Shown here: one piece after another, positions 1 through 10,003 of the stretch
How the letters are laid out: the number at the start of each line of letters is the position of its first letter
Numbering within the stretch: the stretch's first letter is position 1
Virus record (IMG/VR): IMGVR_UViG_2541047728_000018
Reading direction: 5' to 3' (one strand)
Length of the DNA: 11,200 nucleotides
Source: a virus
Taxonomy: Duplodnaviria > Heunggongvirae > Uroviricota > Caudoviricetes
The notes under the pieces: model-generated
What the model was told of the DNA's origin: nothing
Database searches by the model: none
Seen by the model: only the letters and a program-made list of their open reading frames with translations
Made by a program: the position numbers and the translations under genes

Positions 1-1242
1 ATGGCGAGAAAAACACACCCATTAACCACAGTGCAGATCAAAGCAGCCAGACCAGCGCAAAAGGAGTACACCCTGCAGGACGGCGGAGGGCTTTTTCTCC
101 TGGTCAAACCGTCTGGATCAAAACTCTGGAGATTTTCCTACTACCGACCATCGGACAAAAAAAGAATATTGCTGAGTTTTGGATCGCTTGAAGATGTTTC
201 CCTGGCTGATGCCAGAAAACGCCGTAGCGAGTACAGGACGTTAATCAGTGCCGGAACTGACCCGCAGGACCACGAGAGGCAAAAAAGAGAGACAGAGGCC
301 CGAAGACAAGGGAACACGTTCGAAAATGTGGCGGCGGCATGGTACCAGGTGAAAATCAGCCAGAATCTGGCCCCCAACACGATTAAAGACATCTGGCGTT
401 CGCTGGATAAATATGTATTCCCGTTCATCGGCAACACGCCAATAGATACCCTCACCGCCCGAAGGTTCGTTGAAGTGCTTACCCCCATCAAGGAGCGCGG
501 CAACCTGGAAACACTCAAGCGGGTTTTACAGCGCGTTAATGAGGTAATGGATTACGCCGCCAACAGTGGGCTGATTGATGCCAATCCGGCTATGAATGTG
601 CGTAAGGCGTTTCCCTCACCTGTAAAAAAACATATGCCAACAATCCGCCCCGAACAGCTGCCGGAGCTTATGCAGGCTTTATCAGTATCGGCAACAGAAC
701 GGCAGACCAGATTACTGATTGAATGGCAGTTACTGACCGTAACCCGTCCCGCCGAAGCGTCATCAACGCGGTGGGATGAAATCAACCTGGACGCGAAGCA
801 ATGGACGATACCTGCCGGACGCATGAAGATGCGCAGGGATCACGTTATCCCGCTTTCCGGTCAGGCTATGGCGGTGCTGGAGGCCATGAAACCAATCAGC
901 CACCACCGCAATTACGTTTTCCCAAGTCTGAAAGACCCACAGCAGCCGATGAACAGCCAGACAGCTAACGCAGCATTGCGGCGTATGGGATTCGCTGGCG
1001 TGCTGGTGTCTCATGGATTACGCGCCATATTCAGCACAGCAGCGAACGAGGAAGGATTCGAGCCGGACGTAATAGAGGCGGCACTTGCCCACGTCGACAC
1101 CAACGAAGTTAGACGGGCATACAACCGGAGCAACTACATAGAAAAACGCATCGTGCTGATGCGCTGGTGGGGCGAATTTGTCGAGGCTGCGGCGACGGGC
1201 GTAACCCTCGCCAGTGGTAAAAGGGGTATCCGAGCCGTGTAG
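1..1242 (+). CDS. int: Tyrosine-type site-specific integrase, P4-like family
   Basis: 413-aa ORF. N-terminal arm-binding-type motif (GGGLFLLVKPSGSKLWRFSYY) typical of P4-family integrases; C-terminal catalytic signature VTRPAEA (Arg), HGLRAIFST (H-x-x-R) and RRAYNRSNY (Tyr). Sits at the element boundary, as expected for an island integrase. Confidence 0.9.
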   Translation: MARKTHPLTTVQIKAARPAQKEYTLQDGGGLFLLVKPSGSKLWRFSYYRPSDKKRILLSFGSLEDVSLADARKRRSEYRTLISAGTDPQDHERQKRETEARRQGNTFENVAAAWYQVKISQNLAPNTIKDIWRSLDKYVFPFIGNTPIDTLTARRFVEVLTPIKERGNLETLKRVLQRVNEVMDYAANSGLIDANPAMNVRKAFPSPVKKHMPTIRPEQLPELMQALSVSATERQTRLLIEWQLLTVTRPAEASSTRWDEINLDAKQWTIPAGRMKMRRDHVIPLSGQAMAVLEAMKPISHHRNYVFPSLKDPQQPMNSQTANAALRRMGFAGVLVSHGLRAIFSTAANEEGFEPDVIEAALAHVDTNEVRRAYNRSNYIEKRIVLMRWWGEFVEAAATGVTLASGKRGIRAV

Positions 1243-1738: not shown

Positions 1739-1945
1739 ATGGAAGCAATCAGAAAAATTATCTTTCGCCAGGAAGTAAAAAAAATTATCCACATCAAGGC
1801 AGACAGCACGCTGCAAAGCATGATCAACGCCGGAGAATTTCCGCAGGGTTTTCGCGTTGGTTTACGCCGTCGCGGATGGTATGAGGATGATGTGTTGGCC
1901 TGGCAGAAAGAACGCGAACAGGAAGCACGCGGAACGGCTGCTTAA
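1739..1945 (+). CDS. alpA: AlpA-family phage transcriptional regulator / excisionase-like HTH protein
   Basis: 68-aa ORF; ...LQSMINAGEFPQGFRVGLRRRGWYEDDVLAWQKER matches the AlpA family pattern (helix, then F-P-x-x-x-x-x-G-x-R-x-x-x-W, then acidic tail). Its position after int is typical of P4-like and PICI-like islands. Confidence 0.8.
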   Translation: MEAIRKIIFRQEVKKIIHIKADSTLQSMINAGEFPQGFRVGLRRRGWYEDDVLAWQKEREQEARGTAA

Positions 1946-2834: not shown

Positions 2835-3291
2835 AAACCGCTTGCAAAAAATTATCACGGGGCTGTATGCTTCCCCCGTCGCCCACATGGCGACCGGGTT
2901 TAGCAGCCTGAATACATCTGGCGGACAGCCGCCCACATCCGATAAGCGGTTTTTTTGTGTCCGTAAACCTACCCATACCCGCATTATGGCGGGGCGTAAC
3001 GGGGGAGCCTTTGTGCTCGCTGGTTTCCAGATGACCAGTCTGCTAACCCTGTTACGTCTCGCCACCATGTTTAGCAGCGTAGTAGCGAGACTCCTTAAAA
3101 TTCATCTGGGAGCCTTTCACATGGCTGTATTCGCACGCCCTTATTTTGTCTGGCGCTTTATGCAGTGCCTGACAGACAGTATTGCAATATTCACCGTTAC
3201 CGCTGCCACTGAGCGCGAAGCACGTGCACAGCTGCCGCACGCACATCTTATTTTTGTCGCCCGTATTCGCCAGGGGGGGAGTCATGCATAA
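2827..3291 (+). CDS. Protein (154 aa) whose C-terminal ~56 aa are paralogous to the preceding small ORF; alternative internal start at 3121
   Basis: Start overlaps the upstream stop in ATGCGTAA (2827-2834). C-terminus FVWRFMQCLTDSIAIFTVTAATEREARAQLPHAHLIFVARIRQGGSHA. ATG at 3121 has a GGGAG SD and would give a 56-aa paralog instead. Confidence 0.35.
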   Translation: MRKNRLQKIITGLYASPVAHMATGFSSLNTSGGQPPTSDKRFFCVRKPTHTRIMAGRNGGAFVLAGFQMTSLLTLLRLATMFSSVVARLLKIHLGAFHMAVFARPYFVWRFMQCLTDSIAIFTVTAATEREARAQLPHAHLIFVARIRQGGSHA

Positions 3292-3516: not shown

Positions 3517-3816
3517 ATGAAAAATAAAAATTCTGGCGTTACTGCCAGCGGCCCCGCTCGTCCTGAATTTATGAACGGCGATATTTACCGCGATAAATAT
3601 GGCGGCATGGTAACGATTAAAGGCGTGGCAGAACGGCGCATCACCTACCGTCGTGAAGGCTACGAATATGATTGCGTGATGCCTGTTTATCAGTTTGATC
3701 GTGATTTTTCTCTGGTGCAGGCAGCGCCCCGTAGTGTGCCCACCAGCAGGGAGAAAGCACGCGCCAATATTCAGGAAATAAAAAAGATGCTTAACGTATT
3801 CAGGGGTAAAAAATGA
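3517..3816 (+). CDS. Hypothetical protein (99 aa), translationally coupled to the primase
   Basis: SD GGAGAA upstream; its stop overlaps the primase start in ATGA (3813-3816). Confidence 0.55.
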   Translation: MKNKNSGVTASGPARPEFMNGDIYRDKYGGMVTIKGVAERRITYRREGYEYDCVMPVYQFDRDFSLVQAAPRSVPTSREKARANIQEIKKMLNVFRGKK

Positions 3817-5561
3817 AACTGGCACCGAACGTAAAAAAACAGCCACGCGGAATAAAACACAAAGACACAGAGGTAATTATTTTCGCGGGTAGTGATGCCT
3901 GGTCGCACGCGAAACAATGGCAGGAGCAGGATGGCCCCGCATCCGGCGATAATGTGCCGCCTGTGTGGCTTGGGCCAAATCAGCTTGCCGAACTTGATGC
4001 ACTGAAAATTGTTCCGGATGGAAAAAAACGCGTAAGGCTGTACCAGGCCGGAGAACTGGATTTGGTGGAGACCAAAAAGATTGGTCAGAAGCTGGCGGCG
4101 GCAGATATTCAGGACGCAAATTTTTACCCCGAAGGAATGCACGTCCAGAAGTGTGAAAACTGGCGGCGCTATCTGAATGCTGAGCGTGAAAATATTGCCG
4201 CAGGGCTTACCATGCCGGAGCAGAAAAATACGCAACTGGCACAAATGGCAGACAGTGAGCGCGCGCAGCTGCTTGCCGAGCGCTTTGATGGCGTTTGTGT
4301 GCATCCTGAAAGTGAAATCGTTCACGTATGGCGCGGCGGGGTATGGTGTCCGGTCAGCACAATGGAGCTGAGCCGCGAAATGGTGGCGATCTATTCAGAG
4401 CACAGGGCCACTTTCAGCAAGCGCGTAATCAATAACGCCGTGGAAGCGTTAAAAGTTATTGCCGAACCAATGGGCGAGCCGTCCGGCTATTTGCTGCCGT
4501 TCGCCAATGGTGCGCTTGACCTGAAAACGGGGGAATTTTCCCCGCACACGCCGGAGAACTGGATCACCACGCACAACGGCATTGAGTACACGCCACCAGC
4601 ACCCGGGGAGAACATCCGCGATAACGCGCCAAACTTTCATAAATGGCTTGAGCACGCAGCCGGAAAAGACCCGAGCAAGATGATGCGTATATGTGCCGCG
4701 CTGTACATGATTATGGCGAACCGGTACGACTGGCAGATGTTTATTGAGGCCACCGGAGACGGCGGGAGCGGTAAAAGTACATTCACACACATAGCCAGCC
4801 TTCTGGCAGGGAAACAGAACACGGTAAGCGCTGAAATGACATCGCTTGATGATGCTGGTGGACGTGCGCAGGTTGTCGGGAGTCGTCTTATCGTCCTGGC
4901 TGACCAGCCGAAATATACAGGCGAAGGAACGGGCATCAAGAAAATCACAGGCGGCGACCCCGTGGAAGTTAACCCGAAATATGAAAAGCGTTTCACGGCG
5001 GTAATCAGGGCGGTGGTGCTGGCGACCAACAACAACCCGATGATATTCACCGAACGGGCCGGAGGTGTGGCACGTCGTCGCGTGATTTTCCGTTTCGACA
5101 ATATCGTCAGTGAGGCCGAAAAAGACAGGGAGCTACCGGAAAAGATCGCGGCTGAAATCCCTGTCATTATCCGCCGATTGCTGGCGAACTTTACCGACCC
5201 TGAGAAGGCACGGGCTTTACTACTGGAACAGCGTGACGGTGATGAAGCTCTGGCAATAAAGCAACAGACGGATCCGGTTATTGAGTTTTGCCAGTTCCTG
5301 AATTTTCTGGAGGAAGCACGCGGCCTGATGATGGGCGGCGGTGGCGATTCAGTGAAGTACACGACCAGAAACAGCCTTTACCGCGTCTATCTGGCGTTTA
5401 TGGCGTACGCAGGCAGGAGCAAACCGCTAAACGTAAATGACTTTGGCAAGGCTATGAAGCCAGCCGCGAAAGTTTACGGACATGAATATATTACGCGGAA
5501 AGTTAAGGGAGTAACGCAGACTAACGCAATAACAACAGACGAGTGCGACGCGTTTTTATAA
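3813..5561 (+). CDS. Phage/plasmid primase-helicase, P4 alpha-like (D5_N / primase C-terminal type)
   Basis: 582-aa ORF with Walker A motif GDGGSGKST; overall layout of P4-family primase/helicase C-terminal region; placed between alpA and an iteron origin as in P4-like and PICI replicons. Confidence 0.85.
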   Translation: MKLAPNVKKQPRGIKHKDTEVIIFAGSDAWSHAKQWQEQDGPASGDNVPPVWLGPNQLAELDALKIVPDGKKRVRLYQAGELDLVETKKIGQKLAAADIQDANFYPEGMHVQKCENWRRYLNAERENIAAGLTMPEQKNTQLAQMADSERAQLLAERFDGVCVHPESEIVHVWRGGVWCPVSTMELSREMVAIYSEHRATFSKRVINNAVEALKVIAEPMGEPSGYLLPFANGALDLKTGEFSPHTPENWITTHNGIEYTPPAPGENIRDNAPNFHKWLEHAAGKDPSKMMRICAALYMIMANRYDWQMFIEATGDGGSGKSTFTHIASLLAGKQNTVSAEMTSLDDAGGRAQVVGSRLIVLADQPKYTGEGTGIKKITGGDPVEVNPKYEKRFTAVIRAVVLATNNNPMIFTERAGGVARRRVIFRFDNIVSEAEKDRELPEKIAAEIPVIIRRLLANFTDPEKARALLLEQRDGDEALAIKQQTDPVIEFCQFLNFLEEARGLMMGGGGDSVKYTTRNSLYRVYLAFMAYAGRSKPLNVNDFGKAMKPAAKVYGHEYITRKVKGVTQTNAITTDECDAFL

Positions 5562-5576
5562 TTTTTTGTAATTGCT

Positions 5577-5800
5577 GTCTACCCTGTCTACCTGAGTAAA
5601 GAAAAATACATTTAATTCAGTGCATTAAGTTAGGTAGATAGCTTTTTTTTACTGTCTACCCACTATCTACCCTCTCTACCTGATTTTACCTGAATCAGAC
5701 AGGGAGGTAGATACGGGGTAGATAGTGGATAAAAGCACTCTACCCCGCTGAAAGCCGCGCCATTACTGGCATGAGGGCCACTAAGGTAGATAAGGTAGAC
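5577..5800. repeat. Iteron-type replication origin (about 11 copies of GGTAGAT(A) / (G)TCTACC in both orientations) with a DnaA-box-like site
   Basis: + orientation copies (xTCTACC) at 5577, 5586, 5654, 5665, 5674, 5738; inverted copies (GGTAGAx) at 5633, 5706, 5717, 5785, 5794. AGTGGATAA (8/9 match to DnaA box TGTGGATAA) at about 5724-5732. AT-rich spacer at 5596-5650. Lies immediately downstream of the primase gene. Confidence 0.6.
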
Positions 5801-5849: not shown

Positions 5850-6128
5850 ATGCACACTTCAGGGAAATTTAATAAATCACTCAAAAAACGCAGAGACAGA
5901 ACAGAACCGAAATATCGCGCGTTAGATATGACAGAGCACGCTTTAAAGGTGGCAATCAGAACGATAGACCGCCACGCGGGGGAAGGATACGCGAAAGCAC
6001 ATCCCGAACTGATAAGCGCATTCATGACCACGACGGCGGCAAACTTTGCCACGCTGACAGAACGGGAGATTGCCGAAGCGGAACAGGTAACAACCATCAA
6101 CGTTAAAACCGGAGAGGTGGAATCATGA
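5850..6128 (+). CDS. Hypothetical protein (92 aa)
   Basis: SD GAGGGGG upstream; its stop overlaps the ssb start (ATGA at 6125-6128). Confidence 0.5.
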   Translation: MHTSGKFNKSLKKRRDRTEPKYRALDMTEHALKVAIRTIDRHAGEGYAKAHPELISAFMTTTAANFATLTEREIAEAEQVTTINVKTGEVES

Positions 6129-6547
6129 CAGCACAGATAGCAGCTTACGGGCGGCTGGTGGACGACCCGCAGGTAAAACAGACCAGCAAGGGCACACCGA
6201 TGACGCTGGCGCGTATGGCGGTCCCCCTTCCGTGCAGCCAGGCAGATGACGGAACGGCGACGATGTGGTTATCCGTCCTGGCATTTGGCAGACAGGCCGA
6301 AGCACTGGAAAGGCACCGCAAGGGTGAACTCCTGAGCGTGGCGGGTAACATGCAGATCAGCCAGTGGACTGGGCAGAACGGAGAAACGCGGCAGGGCTGG
6401 CAGGTTATCGCAGACAGTGTAATCAGTGCGCGAACGGCGCGACTGGGCGGCAAAAAAGGTCAACAGGGCCAGGCTACTGACGCGCTGAACAGGGCAAAAC
6501 AACAGGCGGGGAATGATGATCCGTACGGGGATAACATACCGTTTTAA
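6125..6547 (+). CDS. ssb: Single-stranded DNA-binding protein (SSB) homolog
   Basis: 140 aa. OB-fold core alignable from memory to E. coli SSB (IAAYGRLVDDPQV..., WLSVLAFGRQAEALERHRKGELLSVAGNMQISQWT...), glycine/glutamine-rich linker, and C-terminal acidic tip ending DDPYGDNIPF (compare the DDDIPF tail of SSB). Confidence 0.75.
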   Translation: MTAQIAAYGRLVDDPQVKQTSKGTPMTLARMAVPLPCSQADDGTATMWLSVLAFGRQAEALERHRKGELLSVAGNMQISQWTGQNGETRQGWQVIADSVISARTARLGGKKGQQGQATDALNRAKQQAGNDDPYGDNIPF

Positions 6548-6563
6548 GCGACGAGTGACAGAA

Positions 6564-6585
6564 GCCGGAGCAATCCGGCTTTTTT
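6564..6585 (+). terminator. Rho-independent terminator after ssb
   Basis: Stem GCCGGA / TCCGGC with GCAA loop, followed by TTTTTT. Confidence 0.65.
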
Positions 6586-6587
6586 AC

Positions 6588-6760
6588 GGGTCCTCCTGGC
6601 GGGGTGGGCCTGAACACGGGGCGGGAGGCGCGGAAAAAAGCGCATTTTTGTGATTTTATCGTCATCATCATCATGAGCGTAATTTATTGTTTTTAATTGT
6701 TTTGATGCAAAAAAGATGATGGTTGTGGTTAATTTTTGTTCGACATCTTTGCAGGCAGAT
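6588..6760 (+). other. Degenerate cos-like site (cosQ-like GGGTCCTCCTGGC, altered cosN, satellite-type cosB-like tract)
   Basis: Paralogous to 9030-9130. cosQ-like box at 6588-6600; cosN-like ACGGGGCGGGAGGCGCGG at 6616-6633 (2-nt deletion plus substitutions relative to the intact copy); downstream GGTTGTGGTTAATTTTTGTTCGACATCTTT resembles GGTGGTGGTTTTGTTGTTTGCTCTATCTTT at 9109-9138. Confidence 0.4.
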
Positions 6761-6766
6761 AAAAAA

Positions 6767-6804
6767 GCCCGATAAGGTCAGAGGTGGCTTATCGGGCTTT
6801 TGCA
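6767..6804. terminator. Strong hairpin (11-bp stem) flanked by an A run and T-rich tail; bidirectional terminator-like
   Basis: AGCCCGATAAG (6767-6777) / CTTATCGGGCT (6789-6799), 11-nt loop, preceded by AAAAAA and followed by TTTGC. Confidence 0.3.
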
Positions 6805-6877
6805 TATGAGGCTTTTTGGTGCACTGACACACATGATCGGGATCATCATTTCATAATTTGCAACACAACTCAATATC

Positions 6878-6927
6878 ATTGCACAAAATGCAATCATGAT
6901 TATAATCAGAGCTGGATGAACATCCAG
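6878..6927 (+). promoter_or_regulatory. Candidate regulated promoter of the capsid operon
   Basis: Perfect -10 TATAAT at 6901-6906 with a weak -35 (TTGCAC at 6879-6884); inverted repeat ATTGCA-N5-TGCAAT at 6878-6894 over the -35 region; perfect palindrome CTGGATG-AA-CATCCAG at 6912-6927 just downstream of the -10. Confidence 0.35.
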
Positions 6928-6962
6928 TTATGATTTTTTAAGTCGAAGAGGAATTTCTTACT

Positions 6963-7169
6963 ATGGCTGAAGAGAAAAAAGGCGGTGTTTCGGTGTACAT
7001 AAGCCCCGAAATCGTGGAGGTGCTCAAGCAGCGCCACAAAAAAAACTATGAGGCTGGCGTGGCGGCTGGACTGGATCCGCTGATGACGCCGGAGCCGTCG
7101 ATAGGTTCACTTGTACGCTCTTATTTACTTGCGGCGCTTGGGATGCATAAAAATTATGGGGGTGAATAA
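6963..7169 (+). CDS. Hypothetical protein (68 aa), first gene of the head module
   Basis: ORF whose stop (TAA 7167-7169) overlaps the capsid gene ATG (7169-7171); purine-rich SD upstream. Confidence 0.45.
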   Translation: MAEEKKGGVSVYISPEIVEVLKQRHKKNYEAGVAAGLDPLMTPEPSIGSLVRSYLLAALGMHKNYGGE

Positions 7170-8224
7170 TGGCAGGCAAAGCAACGGCACTTAACACTAA
7201 CCAGCTTTTCATGTACCTGAATCGCGGGGATATTGCGGATTTTAAATTCAGCCCTCTGTTTACCACGCTGTTTTTCCCGAACGTGGCGACATTCAGCACG
7301 CAAAACATCATGCTGGATACCCTGGACATTGAAGAAGTCACCATGTCGGCGTTTTGTTCGCCTATGGTGGGTAGCCAGGTTCAGCGCGATAAAGGGTACG
7401 AAACCAGCACAATCAAACCTGGCTACATGAAGCCAAAGCACGAAATCGATCCAACGAAAACCATCATGCGCATGGCTGGAGAAGATCCGGCACAGCTTAA
7501 CGACCCTACCTATCGCCGTATGCGCCTGATTACTGGCAACATGCGCCGCCAGATAAACGCCATTAAGGCACGCGTGGAATGGCTGGCGGTGAATGCGGTA
7601 ACGACCGGAAAAAACATCATTGAGGGCGAAGGCATAGAACGCTATGAAATCGACTGGAAAATACCGGAAAACTGCATCATAGAGCAGGCCAAGGGTAAAA
7701 AATGGTCCGAGCAGGATAAAGACATGCACGACCCAATCTATGACATCGAGCTTTATGCTGATCAGGCTGGTTGCCCCGCAAACGTCATGATTATGGGCGC
7801 TGAGGTATGGCGAACGTTACGCAGCTTTAAAAAATTCCGTGAGCTGTACGATCTTTCCCGTGGTTCAGAGTCCGCCGCAGAGCTGGCCTGTAAAAACCTG
7901 GGCGAAGTGGTGAGCTTTAAAGGCTATCTGGGCGATATTGCCCTTATCGTCTATTCCGGCAAATACACTGACAGCGACGGCACAGAAAAATATTTCCTTG
8001 AGCCTGATTTGCTGGTTCTGGGCAGCACCAACAATAAAGGGCTGGTGGCCTATGGTGCGATTATGGATCAGGACGCAGTAAGAACGGGCGCAACGCAAAA
8101 CATGTTTTACCCGAAAAACTGGATTGAGGACGGCGATCCGGCGATTGAGTACGTGCAGACGCACAGCGCACCGCAGCCGGTTCCGGCAGATATTCGCAAA
8201 TTTGTTACCGTCAAAATTGGTTAA
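7169..8224 (+). CDS. Major capsid protein, lambda gpE family
   Basis: 351 aa. Collinear similarity to lambda gpE recalled from memory: KFSPLFTTLFFPN vs KFDPLFLRLFFRE; PGYMKPKHEIDP vs PGYVKPKHEVNP; DPTYRRMRLITGNMR vs DPAYRRRRIIMQNMR; YPKNWIEDGDPAIEYVQTHSAP vs YPKNWVTTGDPAREFTMIQSAP. Good SD GGGGGTGA. Confidence 0.85.
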   Translation: MAGKATALNTNQLFMYLNRGDIADFKFSPLFTTLFFPNVATFSTQNIMLDTLDIEEVTMSAFCSPMVGSQVQRDKGYETSTIKPGYMKPKHEIDPTKTIMRMAGEDPAQLNDPTYRRMRLITGNMRRQINAIKARVEWLAVNAVTTGKNIIEGEGIERYEIDWKIPENCIIEQAKGKKWSEQDKDMHDPIYDIELYADQAGCPANVMIMGAEVWRTLRSFKKFRELYDLSRGSESAAELACKNLGEVVSFKGYLGDIALIVYSGKYTDSDGTEKYFLEPDLLVLGSTNNKGLVAYGAIMDQDAVRTGATQNMFYPKNWIEDGDPAIEYVQTHSAPQPVPADIRKFVTVKIG

Positions 8225-8235
8225 CGGGGGATTCT

Positions 8236-8571
8236 ATGGACACTCCATACATTGAGTTATTTGCAGGCAGTCAGCAGGTCGCCACGACGCTGGTACATTT
8301 TGCCGCTGATGCTGGCGTTATTCAGGAATTTACCCCGCTGATGCTGGCGGACAATGGCGAGTTTAAGCCGTGGGATGGTAAGGAATCTGGCAAGGCTGTT
8401 TATCTGACCTCGTACCCTGTGGACACGTCAAAGCAGAAATCAGCACAGTGTTACAAGACGGGGATATTCAATATTGCCGCCGTTAACTGGCCTGAGAGCG
8501 TCGACACCGATGCGAAAAAATGCGCCGCCTTTGCGGGTTCTGGCGTATCCGTTCAGCCGCTGGCCCGATAA
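8236..8571 (+). CDS. Head decoration protein, lambda gpD-like
   Basis: 111 aa. TPLMLADNGEFKPWDG vs gpD TPLMLDTSSRKLVAWDG; YKTGIFNIAAVNWPESVDTDAKKCAAFAGSGVSVQ vs [43 protein letters not shown]. Confidence 0.75.
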   Translation: MDTPYIELFAGSQQVATTLVHFAADAGVIQEFTPLMLADNGEFKPWDGKESGKAVYLTSYPVDTSKQKSAQCYKTGIFNIAAVNWPESVDTDAKKCAAFAGSGVSVQPLAR

Positions 8572-8583
8572 GCAGGGGGAACG

Positions 8584-8997
8584 ATGGCAACGAATGAAAG
8601 CATCATGACGCTACCGCTGGCGAGTAAATTTAAAGCCGAAGCGCGGGCAATGGCTGACAGAGGTTTATCAACCTATGAGGCCGTATATCAACTAAACAAA
8701 CTGGAAGAGCAGGACAAGCCGCGCGCTGATGCGATTATGGCGCTTGATGAATCTGGCGACTATCAGCCGCTGTTACGTGCAATGGCAAACGTGCCTTGTA
8801 TCGATGTTGGTACGGCTAAAAGCATCCTTAGCATGACCATAGAGCAGGAACGTCCGAAGGTTGCGCCGGAACTTACTGCAGCCTTTGAAAACTTTATGGA
8901 CATGCACAGCCCGCAAGCCGTATCAGCTGGCATGGCATACGATGGCAGAAACCAGGGCGATGACGGCGACATCGATCGCATACTGAAAACCATCTGA
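8584..8997 (+). CDS. Hypothetical protein (137 aa) in the head module
   Basis: Good SD AGGGGGA, tight spacing after the decoration gene, followed by a terminator. No recognisable family. Confidence 0.5.
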   Translation: MATNESIMTLPLASKFKAEARAMADRGLSTYEAVYQLNKLEEQDKPRADAIMALDESGDYQPLLRAMANVPCIDVGTAKSILSMTIEQERPKVAPELTAAFENFMDMHSPQAVSAGMAYDGRNQGDDGDIDRILKTI

Positions 8998-9003
8998 GAC
9001 AAG

Positions 9004-9027
9004 GCCGGAGAAATCCGGCTTTTTTTT
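9004..9027 (+). terminator. Rho-independent terminator closing the head module
   Basis: Stem GCCGGA / TCCGGC with GAAA loop, followed by 8 T. Confidence 0.65.
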
Positions 9028-9029
9028 AT

Positions 9030-9138
9030 GGGTCCTTTCCGGCATATGGACCCGTTACGGGGCGGCGACCTCGCGGTTTTTCGCTATTTATGAGCTTTTT
9101 CAGGGGGGTGGTGGTGGTTTTGTTGTTTGCTCTATCTT
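9030..9138 (+). other. cos site (cosQ-like, lambda-identical cosN, non-lambda cosB) upstream of the Nu1-like gene
   Basis: GGGTCCTTTCCGG (9030-9042) matches the lambda right-end cosQ-proximal sequence; CGTTACGGGGCGGCGACCTCGCGG carries the lambda 12-nt cohesive end GGGCGGCGACCT (9060-9071). Downstream sequence diverges from lambda cosB (no CGTTTCC-type R sites). Confidence 0.7.
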
Positions 9139-9204: not shown

Positions 9205-9747
9205 ATGAAATCGCACCTGATGAACAAAAAAAACATGGCGAAAAGCTGCCGTGTAAGTGCGACAGCGTTCGACAAGTGGGGAGTGACTCCCGTTGAACGT
9301 AAAGGCCGTGAGGCGTTTTACGATGTTGCCAGCGTGATAGACAATAGGGTTAACAATGCAATTAGCCAGCTTACAAACGACAAAGGCGATATTGATGATG
9401 ATGAACTCTTACGAGTCAGGATCAGATTACTGACAGCACAGGCGGAGGCGCAGGAACTTAAAAACGAGCGCGATCGCGGTGACGTGATTGATACTGAGTT
9501 TTGCCTGTACGCGCTTTCAAAGCTGGCGAGTCAGATTTCATCAATCATGGACAGCCTCCCGCTTACTATGCAAAGGAGCTTCCCACAGATTACCCCCGCC
9601 ATGCTGGATAGGCTTAAAAGGGAAGTGGTTAAAGCCTGTAATGCCAGTGCCAGAGTTGCCGACAACCTCCCACAGATACTGGCTGATTACTTGAAAGAAA
9701 CAACCGGAAACGTACCGGAAAAGTTGCTACAGAAGAAAGGCGAGTAA
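9205..9747 (+). CDS. Terminase small subunit, lambda Nu1-like (possible packaging-redirection TerS)
   Basis: 180 aa. LLTAQAEAQELKNERDRGDVIDTEFCLYALSKLASQISSIMDSLPLTMQRSFPQI vs lambda Nu1 LTRAQADAQELKNARDSAEVVETAFCTFVLSRIAGEIASILDGLPLSVQRRFPEL; N-terminal wHTH region (NKKNMAKSC...FYDVASVI) is related but diverged. Alternative starts at 9220 or 9235; SD is weak. Confidence 0.8.
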   Translation: MKSHLMNKKNMAKSCRVSATAFDKWGVTPVERKGREAFYDVASVIDNRVNNAISQLTNDKGDIDDDELLRVRIRLLTAQAEAQELKNERDRGDVIDTEFCLYALSKLASQISSIMDSLPLTMQRSFPQITPAMLDRLKREVVKACNASARVADNLPQILADYLKETTGNVPEKLLQKKGE

Positions 9748-9775: not shown

Positions 9776-9969
9776 GAAACGACATGAAAGCGTCATAAAT
9801 CGCCATTTTAGATGATTACCGTGTCGTTTCTTTTTATTGTGTATCTATTTAAAAACAAATAGTTATGTTCGAGAAGTACCGACATGCTTTTTCCAGAAAA
9901 ATTTTCATAAACAGATAAAAACCGCGAGGTCGCCGCCCCGTAACGGGTCCATAATTCCAGGAAGGACCC
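9776..9969 (-). other. Complete lambda-type cos (cosQ, cosN, cosB with R-site-like repeats) in inverted orientation
   Basis: 9917-9952 is the exact reverse complement of 9046-9081. Read on the minus strand, the flank resembles lambda cosB: TTTATGAAAATTTTTCTGG; AAAAGAAACGACACGG; CATGTCGTTTCTCAGTTTTGTTC (compare lambda TTTATGAAAATTTTCCGG; AAAGGAAACGACAGGTG; CTGTCGTTTCCTTTCTCTGTTTTTGTCC). cosQ-like GGGTCCTTCCTGG is the complement of 9957-9969. Confidence 0.65.
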
Positions 9970-10003
9970 GACGACACCAGACAATCAGAACGATGGGTGC
10001 ACA

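Follow-up and report, generated by a model that had tools for sequence, protein, structure and literature searches.

A candidate SOS-controlled promoter heads the capsid-homolog operon of an EcCICFT073-type phage satellite

In the published EcCICFT073-type island, c1499 is a putative capsid gene and c1500 a decoration gene, and two cos sites bracket the TerS-like Rpp. Induction of alpA in EcCICFT073 requires a helper phage and not the SOS response. The capsid and decoration homologs of this island type have no known phenotype, and we found no description of their regulation in the literature searched. In the SaPIs of Staphylococcus aureus, excision and replication respond to a helper-phage signal, which is paralleled by the alpA induction in EcCICFT073. 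SaPI operon I, which is devoted to packaging and capsid morphogenesis, is reported to be controlled by LexA (Ubeda et al., 2007, as cited by others). The locus analyzed here is predicted to resemble SaPI operon I in that a separate promoter, controlled by the host SOS repressor, serves a capsid- or packaging-related module. It differs from operon I in its Gram-negative host, its unrelated genes (lambda E- and D-like) and its different LexA motif, and in that its LexA control is a prediction; the likeness implies no homology, and the logic would be convergent.

The window, that is, the whole stretch of 11,200 nt under analysis, is by its sequence an EcCICFT073-type phage-inducible chromosomal island (PICI), a satellite of E. 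coli phages. Its gene content (Table 1) agrees with the published description of the classical EcCICFT073 type, for which reason the label 'capsid-forming PICI' was dropped. Over the 441 bases around the leader of the four-gene operon, identity to strains such as Nissle 1917 and ATCC 25922 is 98.9-100%, and their right half (from 6761) was found in 931 of 5426 complete E. coli genomes, including these two strains and O157:H7.

Table 1. Genes and predicted sequence elements of the window (promoter, operator and terminator assignments are predictions)
Feature	Position	Strand	Description
Integrase gene	1-1242		
AlpA-like gene	1739-1945		
C4-type antisense RNA with targets	2865-3069		Rfam
DUF4222 gene			before the primase gene
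D5-type primase gene	3813-5561		
Iterons	between primase gene and ssb		
ssb	6125-6547		
T1	6560-6585	+	intrinsic terminator ending the ssb transcription unit; GCCGGA-GCAA-TCCGGC, then T6; -15.4 kcal/mol, z = -4.0 (RNA fold)
T2	6761-6801	both	two-way intrinsic terminator ('strong hairpin'); GC-rich 10-bp stem with 11-nt loop, flanked by A6 and T4
O1	6848-6864		putative operator, ATTTCA-N5-TGCAAC; centre near -57
O2	6878-6894		perfect dyad, ATTGCA-N5-TGCAAT; centre near -27; overlaps -35 and spacer
-35 hexamer	6879-6884	+	TTGCAC (3/6); 16-bp spacer; read from the sequence
-10 hexamer	6901-6906	+	TATAAT inside the 12-bp palindrome TGATTATAATCA (6897-6908); predicted start near 6913
T3	6904-6939	+ only	extended inverted repeat, terminator-like; 14-15 bp stem, GAAC loop, direct U-run (pattern scan)
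Candidate LexA (SOS) box	6910-6929		AGCTGGATGAACATCCAGTT; CTG 6912-6914, CAG 6925-6927
Shine-Dalgarno and start codon of orf68	6946-6965	+	AAGAGGA (6946-6952), ATG (6963); read from the sequence
orf68	6963-7169	+	PHROG 3255; first gene of the four-gene operon (6963-8997)
Capsid protein homolog, lambda-E-like	7169-8224	+	matches EcCICFT073 putative capsid c1499
Decoration protein homolog, lambda-D-like	8236-8571	+	matches EcCICFT073 decoration gene c1500
orf137	8584-8997	+	last gene of the operon
T4	9001-9030	+	strong intrinsic terminator closing the operon; 9 pairs, then a 9-T run
Nu1-like small-terminase homolog (Rpp-type)	9205-9747		3' of orf137

Several other features of the window were identified in passing. 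An inverted repeat of about 40 bp (9040-9083 and 9916-9970) flanks the Nu1-like gene and contains the lambda cohesive-end sequence GGGCGGCGACCT; the two copies are most likely the cos1 and cos2 sites already described for EcCICFT073. In one relative (L207), the Nu1-like gene and the capsid gene are on opposite strands. The C4 antisense RNA scored 72.7 bits in Rfam, above threshold, with the a1/b1 target module and an isrK-like element just below threshold, and the region, which precedes the replication genes of the island, is predicted to be an RNA immunity system of the P1/P7/P4 style. This system provided the only real Rfam matches; the leader gave none. Many GGTAGA/TCTACC-type iterons follow the primase gene at 5560-5800 and presumably constitute the replication origin. 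In the distant relatives L210 (3902-4246), L212 (3903-4256) and L213 (3875-4312), the decoration homolog is followed by a 114-145 aa Phage_AlpA-domain protein at the place occupied by orf137 in the window; a kinship between the two was considered and rejected, as they are unrelated.

We compared the leader among 80 IMG/VR loci whose capsid proteins are 92-100% identical, which yielded 57 distinct leader sequences, and among E. coli genome loci. Distant lineages were reached through capsid homologs and comprise a second E. coli type (L202, L207 and L208), Salmonella (L204), Edwardsiella (L205), Lelliottia (L209) and the three lineages without orf68 (L210, L212 and L213). Third codon positions, with a nucleotide diversity of 0.14-0.21, served as the neutral reference for diversity by segment. 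Diversity was 0-0.008 in the stems of T2, 0.011 in O1, 0.073 in O2, 0.063 in the -10 palindrome and 0.030 in the core of the start-site palindrome, while it reached 0.285 in the loop of T2 and 0.224 in the spacer at 6819-6847. The named elements are non-random and conserved far beyond the neutral expectation; as their diversity is far below the neutral rate and that of the spacer is not, they are under purifying selection and the intervening sequence is not. The stretch (T-run)AGTCAAAGAGGAAT in front of orf68 is also conserved between lineages. An inverted repeat, ATGATC-GG-GATCAT (6833-6846), was dismissed because the spacer that contains it evolves neutrally and most relatives have an imperfect version of it, and two small leader ORFs (16 aa from 6806; 49 aa at 6784-6933) were ruled out by frame-shifting indels at 6809-6826 in relatives. 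In an E. coli protein of 79 aa (P0082), the N-terminus of a PerC-family regulator is fused to the final 25 residues of orf68, which indicates a deletion variant without the whole leader and promoter.

Wider searches were uninformative or negative within their scope. The capsid protein had no match in the species-representative genomes, where the DNA pattern of O2 plus -10 gave only 7 chance matches in unrelated taxa, and a looser O2/-10 pattern was too unspecific in viral contigs to be informative. The leader had no blastn match in phages and is therefore not a copied phage late promoter.

At the left border of the leader, the original prediction had noted a strong hairpin, and this hairpin (T2, 6767-6797) was borne out: GCCCGATAAG (6767-6776) pairs with CTTATCGGGC (6788-6797) between A6 (6761-6766) and T4 (6798-6801), and the RNA folds with -23.4 kcal/mol on the plus strand (z = -5.5, 0 of 200 shuffles as good) and with -19.5 on the minus strand. 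A stable GC-rich stem-loop is followed by a U-run, as in intrinsic terminators, with 4 U on the plus and 6 U on the minus strand; a simple terminator scan missed it because the loop exceeds 8 nt. T2 is located at the left border of the conserved capsid-module block, which is shared with other islands; in E. coli genomes as well as in IMG/VR loci, the block starts at 6761, where the hairpin has its A-run. Other lineages carry a hairpin at this position with unrelated stems (ATCCCCCGG, CCCGCCAG and GCCCCCC), in which 2-4 T on the plus strand contrast with 6-9 T on the minus strand. Because it stands at a recombination boundary and has the longer U-run on the minus strand in every lineage, T2 is in all appearance a boundary terminator that works better leftward and insulates the modules, not an attenuator of the capsid-operon promoter. 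Since it precedes the -10 by about 100 bp and is not part of any transcript of the promoter, it cannot attenuate this promoter, and the proposed attenuation through the upstream hairpin was abandoned in view of this distance, the position on the module boundary and the better U-run on the opposite strand.

In most relatives, the T1 terminator (AGCCGGAG-AATCCGGC-T6) is located 8 bp upstream of the T2 hairpin, and in the window a 175-bp insert parts T1, right after ssb, from T2. The rightward T1 and the mainly leftward T2 are thus predicted to be a back-to-back pair isolating the operon from the replication module. We found no conserved minus-strand promoter in the leader; one running through the palindromic TGATTATAATCA was rejected for its poor -35 and because relatives with TAAAAT lack the minus-strand -10. 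The 175 bp between T1 and T2 (6588-6762) form a separate mobile block; in Stx1- and Stx2-converting lambdoid phages, the intergenic region that separates the Rz endopeptidase gene from terS is 88-92% identical to it. The block also matches the end of the phage mEp460 record and begins like the cos regions of the island itself (GGGTCCT...ACGGGGCGG). It is probably a third cos site, of the Stx-phage type, which, if real, would allow another helper family to package the island.

The leader contains what we take to be a sigma-70-type promoter with a predicted start near 6913. The perfect TATAAT pointed out earlier is present, and only one of the 57 distinct relatives deviates from it; other lineages have TAAAAT at the same spacing. 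The accompanying statement that there is no good -35 is roughly right: TTGCAC, spaced 16 bp from the -10, matches at three of six positions, and TTGCAA (4/6) stands in most other lineages. A consensus promoter scan did not call this promoter because its -35 fell below the cut-off. On the plus strand of the window, TATAAT occurs four times against 2.7 expected per strand, and all four copies are intergenic: at 1290 after int, at 1605 upstream of alpA, at 5557 at the junction of primase gene and origin, and at 6901 in the leader. A scan-called upstream promoter, TTCATA-18-TATCAT, was rejected because key bases of its -10 are missing in relatives and other lineages lack this -10, and TATGAT (6929-6934) was rejected as a sigma-dependent pause element because many relatives have TGTGAT. 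The leader sequence contains no sigma-54, lambda CII (TTGC-N6-TTGC) or CRP motif.

The inverted repeat described over the -35 position was confirmed as the perfect dyad O2. A single 6-bp repeat of this kind is not significant alone, and its weight comes from the related dyad O1, 30 bp away, and from conservation. Wherever the leader is kept, the order is O1, 13-15 bp, O2, 6 bp ((C/G)ATG(A/C)T) and TA(T/A)AAT, so that O2 always stands 6 bp from the -10 and its left half provides the -35 TTGCA(A/C/T) with a 16-bp spacer. Both dyads are kept in the E. coli, Salmonella, Edwardsiella and Lelliottia lineages, and in some relatives the O2 half-site varies to TGAAAT, which equals the O1 half-site ATTTCA. 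Their common pattern, ATTKCA-N5-TGMAAY, occurs in the window only at these two sites; it is present in all six lineages with orf68 and in none of the three without orf68, compared with about 14 occurrences per 100 kb in unrelated DNA. We found no similar sites or shared motif elsewhere in the island. Two operators 30 bp apart, one of them over the -35, suggest that a cooperative dimeric repressor may act here and only here. To this extent, the original prediction of a conserved, regulated sigma-70-type promoter with operator-like palindromes at the head of the capsid-homolog operon is supported. Farther upstream in the island, a promoter-like TTGACA (2501-2506) has in its spacer the perfect dyad ATTACA-N5-TGTAAT (2512-2528), and TGTAAT/ATTACA repeats continue to 2554; the dyad shares the 6-N5-6 geometry of O1 and O2 but differs in the central half-site base, and 2501-2554 is probably the operator region of the immunity operon.

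The palindrome at the predicted start, CTGGATGAACATCCAG, had been described as a perfect 16-bp palindrome and taken, among other elements, to suggest an activator-dependent promoter. It does cover the predicted start, but it is imperfect, since the 7-bp arms of CTGGATG-AA-CATCCAG (6912-6927) enclose an asymmetric AA (7+2+7). Its core is CTG-N10-CAG, and this core lies in a 20-bp near-palindrome (6910-6929), as in SOS boxes; the gammaproteobacterial LexA box has the consensus TACTG(TA)5CAGTA. The site is best explained not as an activator site but as a repressor site, a LexA (SOS) box. It would cover about -3 to +17 of the predicted promoter, beginning 4 bp after TATAAT. To score it, we used the heterology index, for which proven LexA binders range up to 12.6 and non-binders begin at 15.5, and the low-index class of K-12 peaks at 7.34. 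The index of 6910-6929 was 7.1-8.9 with a matrix rebuilt from 19 validated sites, which reproduced published indices within about 2 units, and 7.6 with a second matrix fitted to 50 published sequence-index pairs with a mean error of 0.31. These values, obtained with reconstructed matrices, are within the range of experimentally bound LexA sites. With the rebuilt matrix, the site was the best-scoring 20-mer of the window, and none of 5000 leader shuffles reached its score.

The box is kept in 82 of the 83 related loci with scores of 4.6-9.4, the exception being a 1-nt insertion that alters the spacing. In keeping with a LexA site, its centre varies among relatives (GAAC, AAAC, GTTC and GAAA), and CTG and CAG are invariant; a recurrent CATACAG variant breaks a hairpin pair and improves the LexA score to 4.6. 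The Salmonella relative retains the LexA-like box, and the Lelliottia relative has a different canonical LexA box, CACTGTTTTTTCATACAGTT, at the same position with a score of 7.1-7.5. Two unrelated palindromes that have only the LexA consensus in common are hard to reconcile with a hairpin or a private repressor. Both a LexA box and a significant hairpin are missing at the start in the L202 lineage and in Edwardsiella, and this layer of control would therefore be lineage-specific.

Among E. coli SOS boxes, that of ruvAB, CGCTGGATATCTATCCAGCA, has the same 6-bp arms (CTGGAT/ATCCAG) in the CTG-N10-CAG arrangement; it is located 50-69 nt upstream of ruvA in K-12 and is listed as an experimentally verified LexA binder with a heterology index of 9.19. 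The box in the window, a prediction from sequence, differs from it in the central four bases and in the flanks. Like those of E. coli SOS promoters, it has an index in the functional range and would overlap the core promoter and the start, whereas, unlike those of SOS repair genes, it is part of a mobile satellite, lies inside a longer hairpin with a U-run and is accompanied by two dyad operators. In the journals covered by our search, no paper connected a LexA box with a Gram-negative island. Another LexA-like box in the window, AGCTGTACAGAAAACCAGTA (1241-1260), has a heterology index of about 10.5-10.8, in the validated-binder range; it comes directly after the stop codon of the integrase gene, and a run of four AAAAC(C) repeats and the TATAAT at 1290 follow about 30 bp downstream.

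Taken together, we consider it probable that the leader is the control region of the four-gene operon, in which a sigma-70 promoter is repressed by LexA and additionally regulated by a second dimeric protein at O1 and O2. We infer the following course, from the start site and LexA binding to the direction of regulation at O1/O2 and the identity of their binder. Isolated by T1 and T2 from the replication module, the operon would be transcribed from the promoter TTGCAC, 16 bp, TATAAT, starting near 6913. In undamaged cells, a LexA dimer on 6910-6929 would lie over the start site and shut the promoter; upon DNA damage, the same signal that induces helper prophages, RecA-stimulated self-cleavage of LexA would open it. 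The second dimeric regulator on O1 and O2 is most likely a further repressor, since O2 overlaps the -35. The leading candidate for this binder is the orf68 product, conceivably a ribbon-helix-helix protein, and the operon would then be autoregulated.

The start palindrome could also act as RNA. According to this explanation, the hairpin of 6904-6935 with its U-run (T3) terminates transcription arriving from upstream, the nested promoter escapes, and the likeness to an SOS box is incidental. Two arms of 15 nt (6904-6918 and 6921-6935), 87% complementary, are followed by T6; a pattern scan classed the structure as terminator-like, and the fold of -13.4 kcal/mol (z = -5.0) has its U-run on the plus strand only. 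The 5' arm holds the end of the -10 and the predicted start. As it reaches upstream of this start, only transcripts from upstream contain the whole structure, and RNA beginning at 6913 has no significant fold. The repeat runs 6 nt past the LexA 20-mer on each side (chance P about 0.007), and compensatory changes are present: 7 further pair types were counted against 4.9 in shuffles, one flanking pair shows UA, GC, CG and UG forms, and G-U cells number 8 on the plus strand against 2 on the minus strand. Salmonella retains an extended stem with a U-run in a different register (-16.5 kcal/mol), and Lelliottia keeps a short outer stem. However, CTG-N10-CAG is not required for a hairpin, and still two lineages whose stems are unrelated match the LexA consensus with scores of about 7, and the recurrent variant breaks a stem pair while bettering the LexA match. 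The arms are invariant instead of covarying, the covariation is modest and could arise from template switching in quasi-palindromes, the upstream unit is already ended by T1, and L202 and L205 have no significant hairpin. An RNA function with an incidental SOS-box likeness is thus improbable in our view, while termination as such is compatible with LexA repression. T3 may either be a backup to T1 and T2 against read-through or be maintained by quasi-palindrome mutation. That a single 32-bp sequence has two jobs, LexA operator as DNA and terminator stem in RNA from upstream, is an unlikely combination.

The original prediction was an activator-dependent late promoter, switched on by AlpA or a late regulator of the helper through the dyads, possibly with antitermination or attenuation in addition. 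AlpA is a known activator of such islands, and alpA overexpression alone was published to drive the cycle. The weak -35 (3/6) would suit an activator, O2 lies between -35 and -10 where the elements of lambda Q and P. aeruginosa AlpA sit, and a -10-like GAACAT/AAACAT/GAAAAT at about +6 to +11 might cause a sigma-dependent pause. The antitermination promoters of the Q/AlpA type (lambda PR'; P. aeruginosa PalpB and PA0807) indeed resemble the leader in having an element between -35 and -10, an early -10-like hexamer and a nearby hairpin with a U-run. They differ in that the 5' arm of the hairpin in the window precedes the predicted start, O2 is unrelated to the AlpA element GGGACG-N5-GGTA, and the island AlpA-like protein has no detectable similarity to the antiterminator: it matches only the unrelated 'AlpA family' structure 8c3t (E 0.48) and no P. 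aeruginosa antiterminator chain at E up to 1. No cognate element, no homologous antiterminator and no leader terminator wholly downstream of the predicted start were found. The upstream hairpin is outside the transcript, and since the 5' arm of the downstream hairpin precedes the start, transcripts of this promoter would meet no terminator; read-through from ssb is in turn predicted to be blocked already by the separate strong terminator T1.

Late promoters dependent on P2 Ogr or P4 Delta, for example P4 Psid, are defined by a TGT-N12-ACA dyad centred near -55. Like Psid, the promoter in the leader belongs to a satellite, serves capsid-related genes, and combines a poor -35 with a dyad upstream, but its dyads near -57 and -27 follow ATTKCA-N5-TGMAAY. 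The TGT-N12-ACA dyad is absent near -55, and 6840-6880 does not contain any TGT. Activation by AlpA or helper was therefore not supported: there is neither an Ogr/Delta-type dyad nor a motif shared between the leader and the alpA upstream region, and the AlpA of the island is unlike the P. aeruginosa antiterminator. An operator over the -35 and a palindrome over +1 are at typical repressor positions. Hence, a late promoter that depends on an activator and has an attenuator upstream is improbable here, and we give activation little credence. It is very improbable that the +1 palindrome is instead the operator of an island- or phage-encoded repressor, such own repressors being frequent in mobile elements, or a 5'-terminal stem-loop (UGGAU-GAAC-AUCCA) stabilizing the mRNA from its very 5' end, because the window has no second copy of the palindrome, the Lelliottia palindrome shares nothing with it except the LexA consensus, and the 5' hairpin from 6913 is weak (centroid -3.4 kcal/mol, RNA z-score near 0).

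If the LexA box is functional, the operon would be inducible by DNA damage without a helper phage, which hints at when to seek the function of the capsid and decoration homologs. If LexA control is true, a widespread accessory member would be added to the E. coli SOS regulon (931 of 5426 genomes). If the start-site sequence in addition had both jobs, LexA operator and terminator stem, the operon could be expressed from its SOS-gated promoter alone, and transcripts running on from the AlpA-driven early genes would never express it. In that case, the island would have two independent inputs, the helper phage via AlpA and DNA damage via LexA, and the logic of the staphylococcal islands would have been reached independently in Gram-negative islands. 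LexA control itself, if true, would mean that Gram-negative and Gram-positive satellites share a design in which excision and replication depend on the helper and the capsid/packaging module depends on the SOS response.
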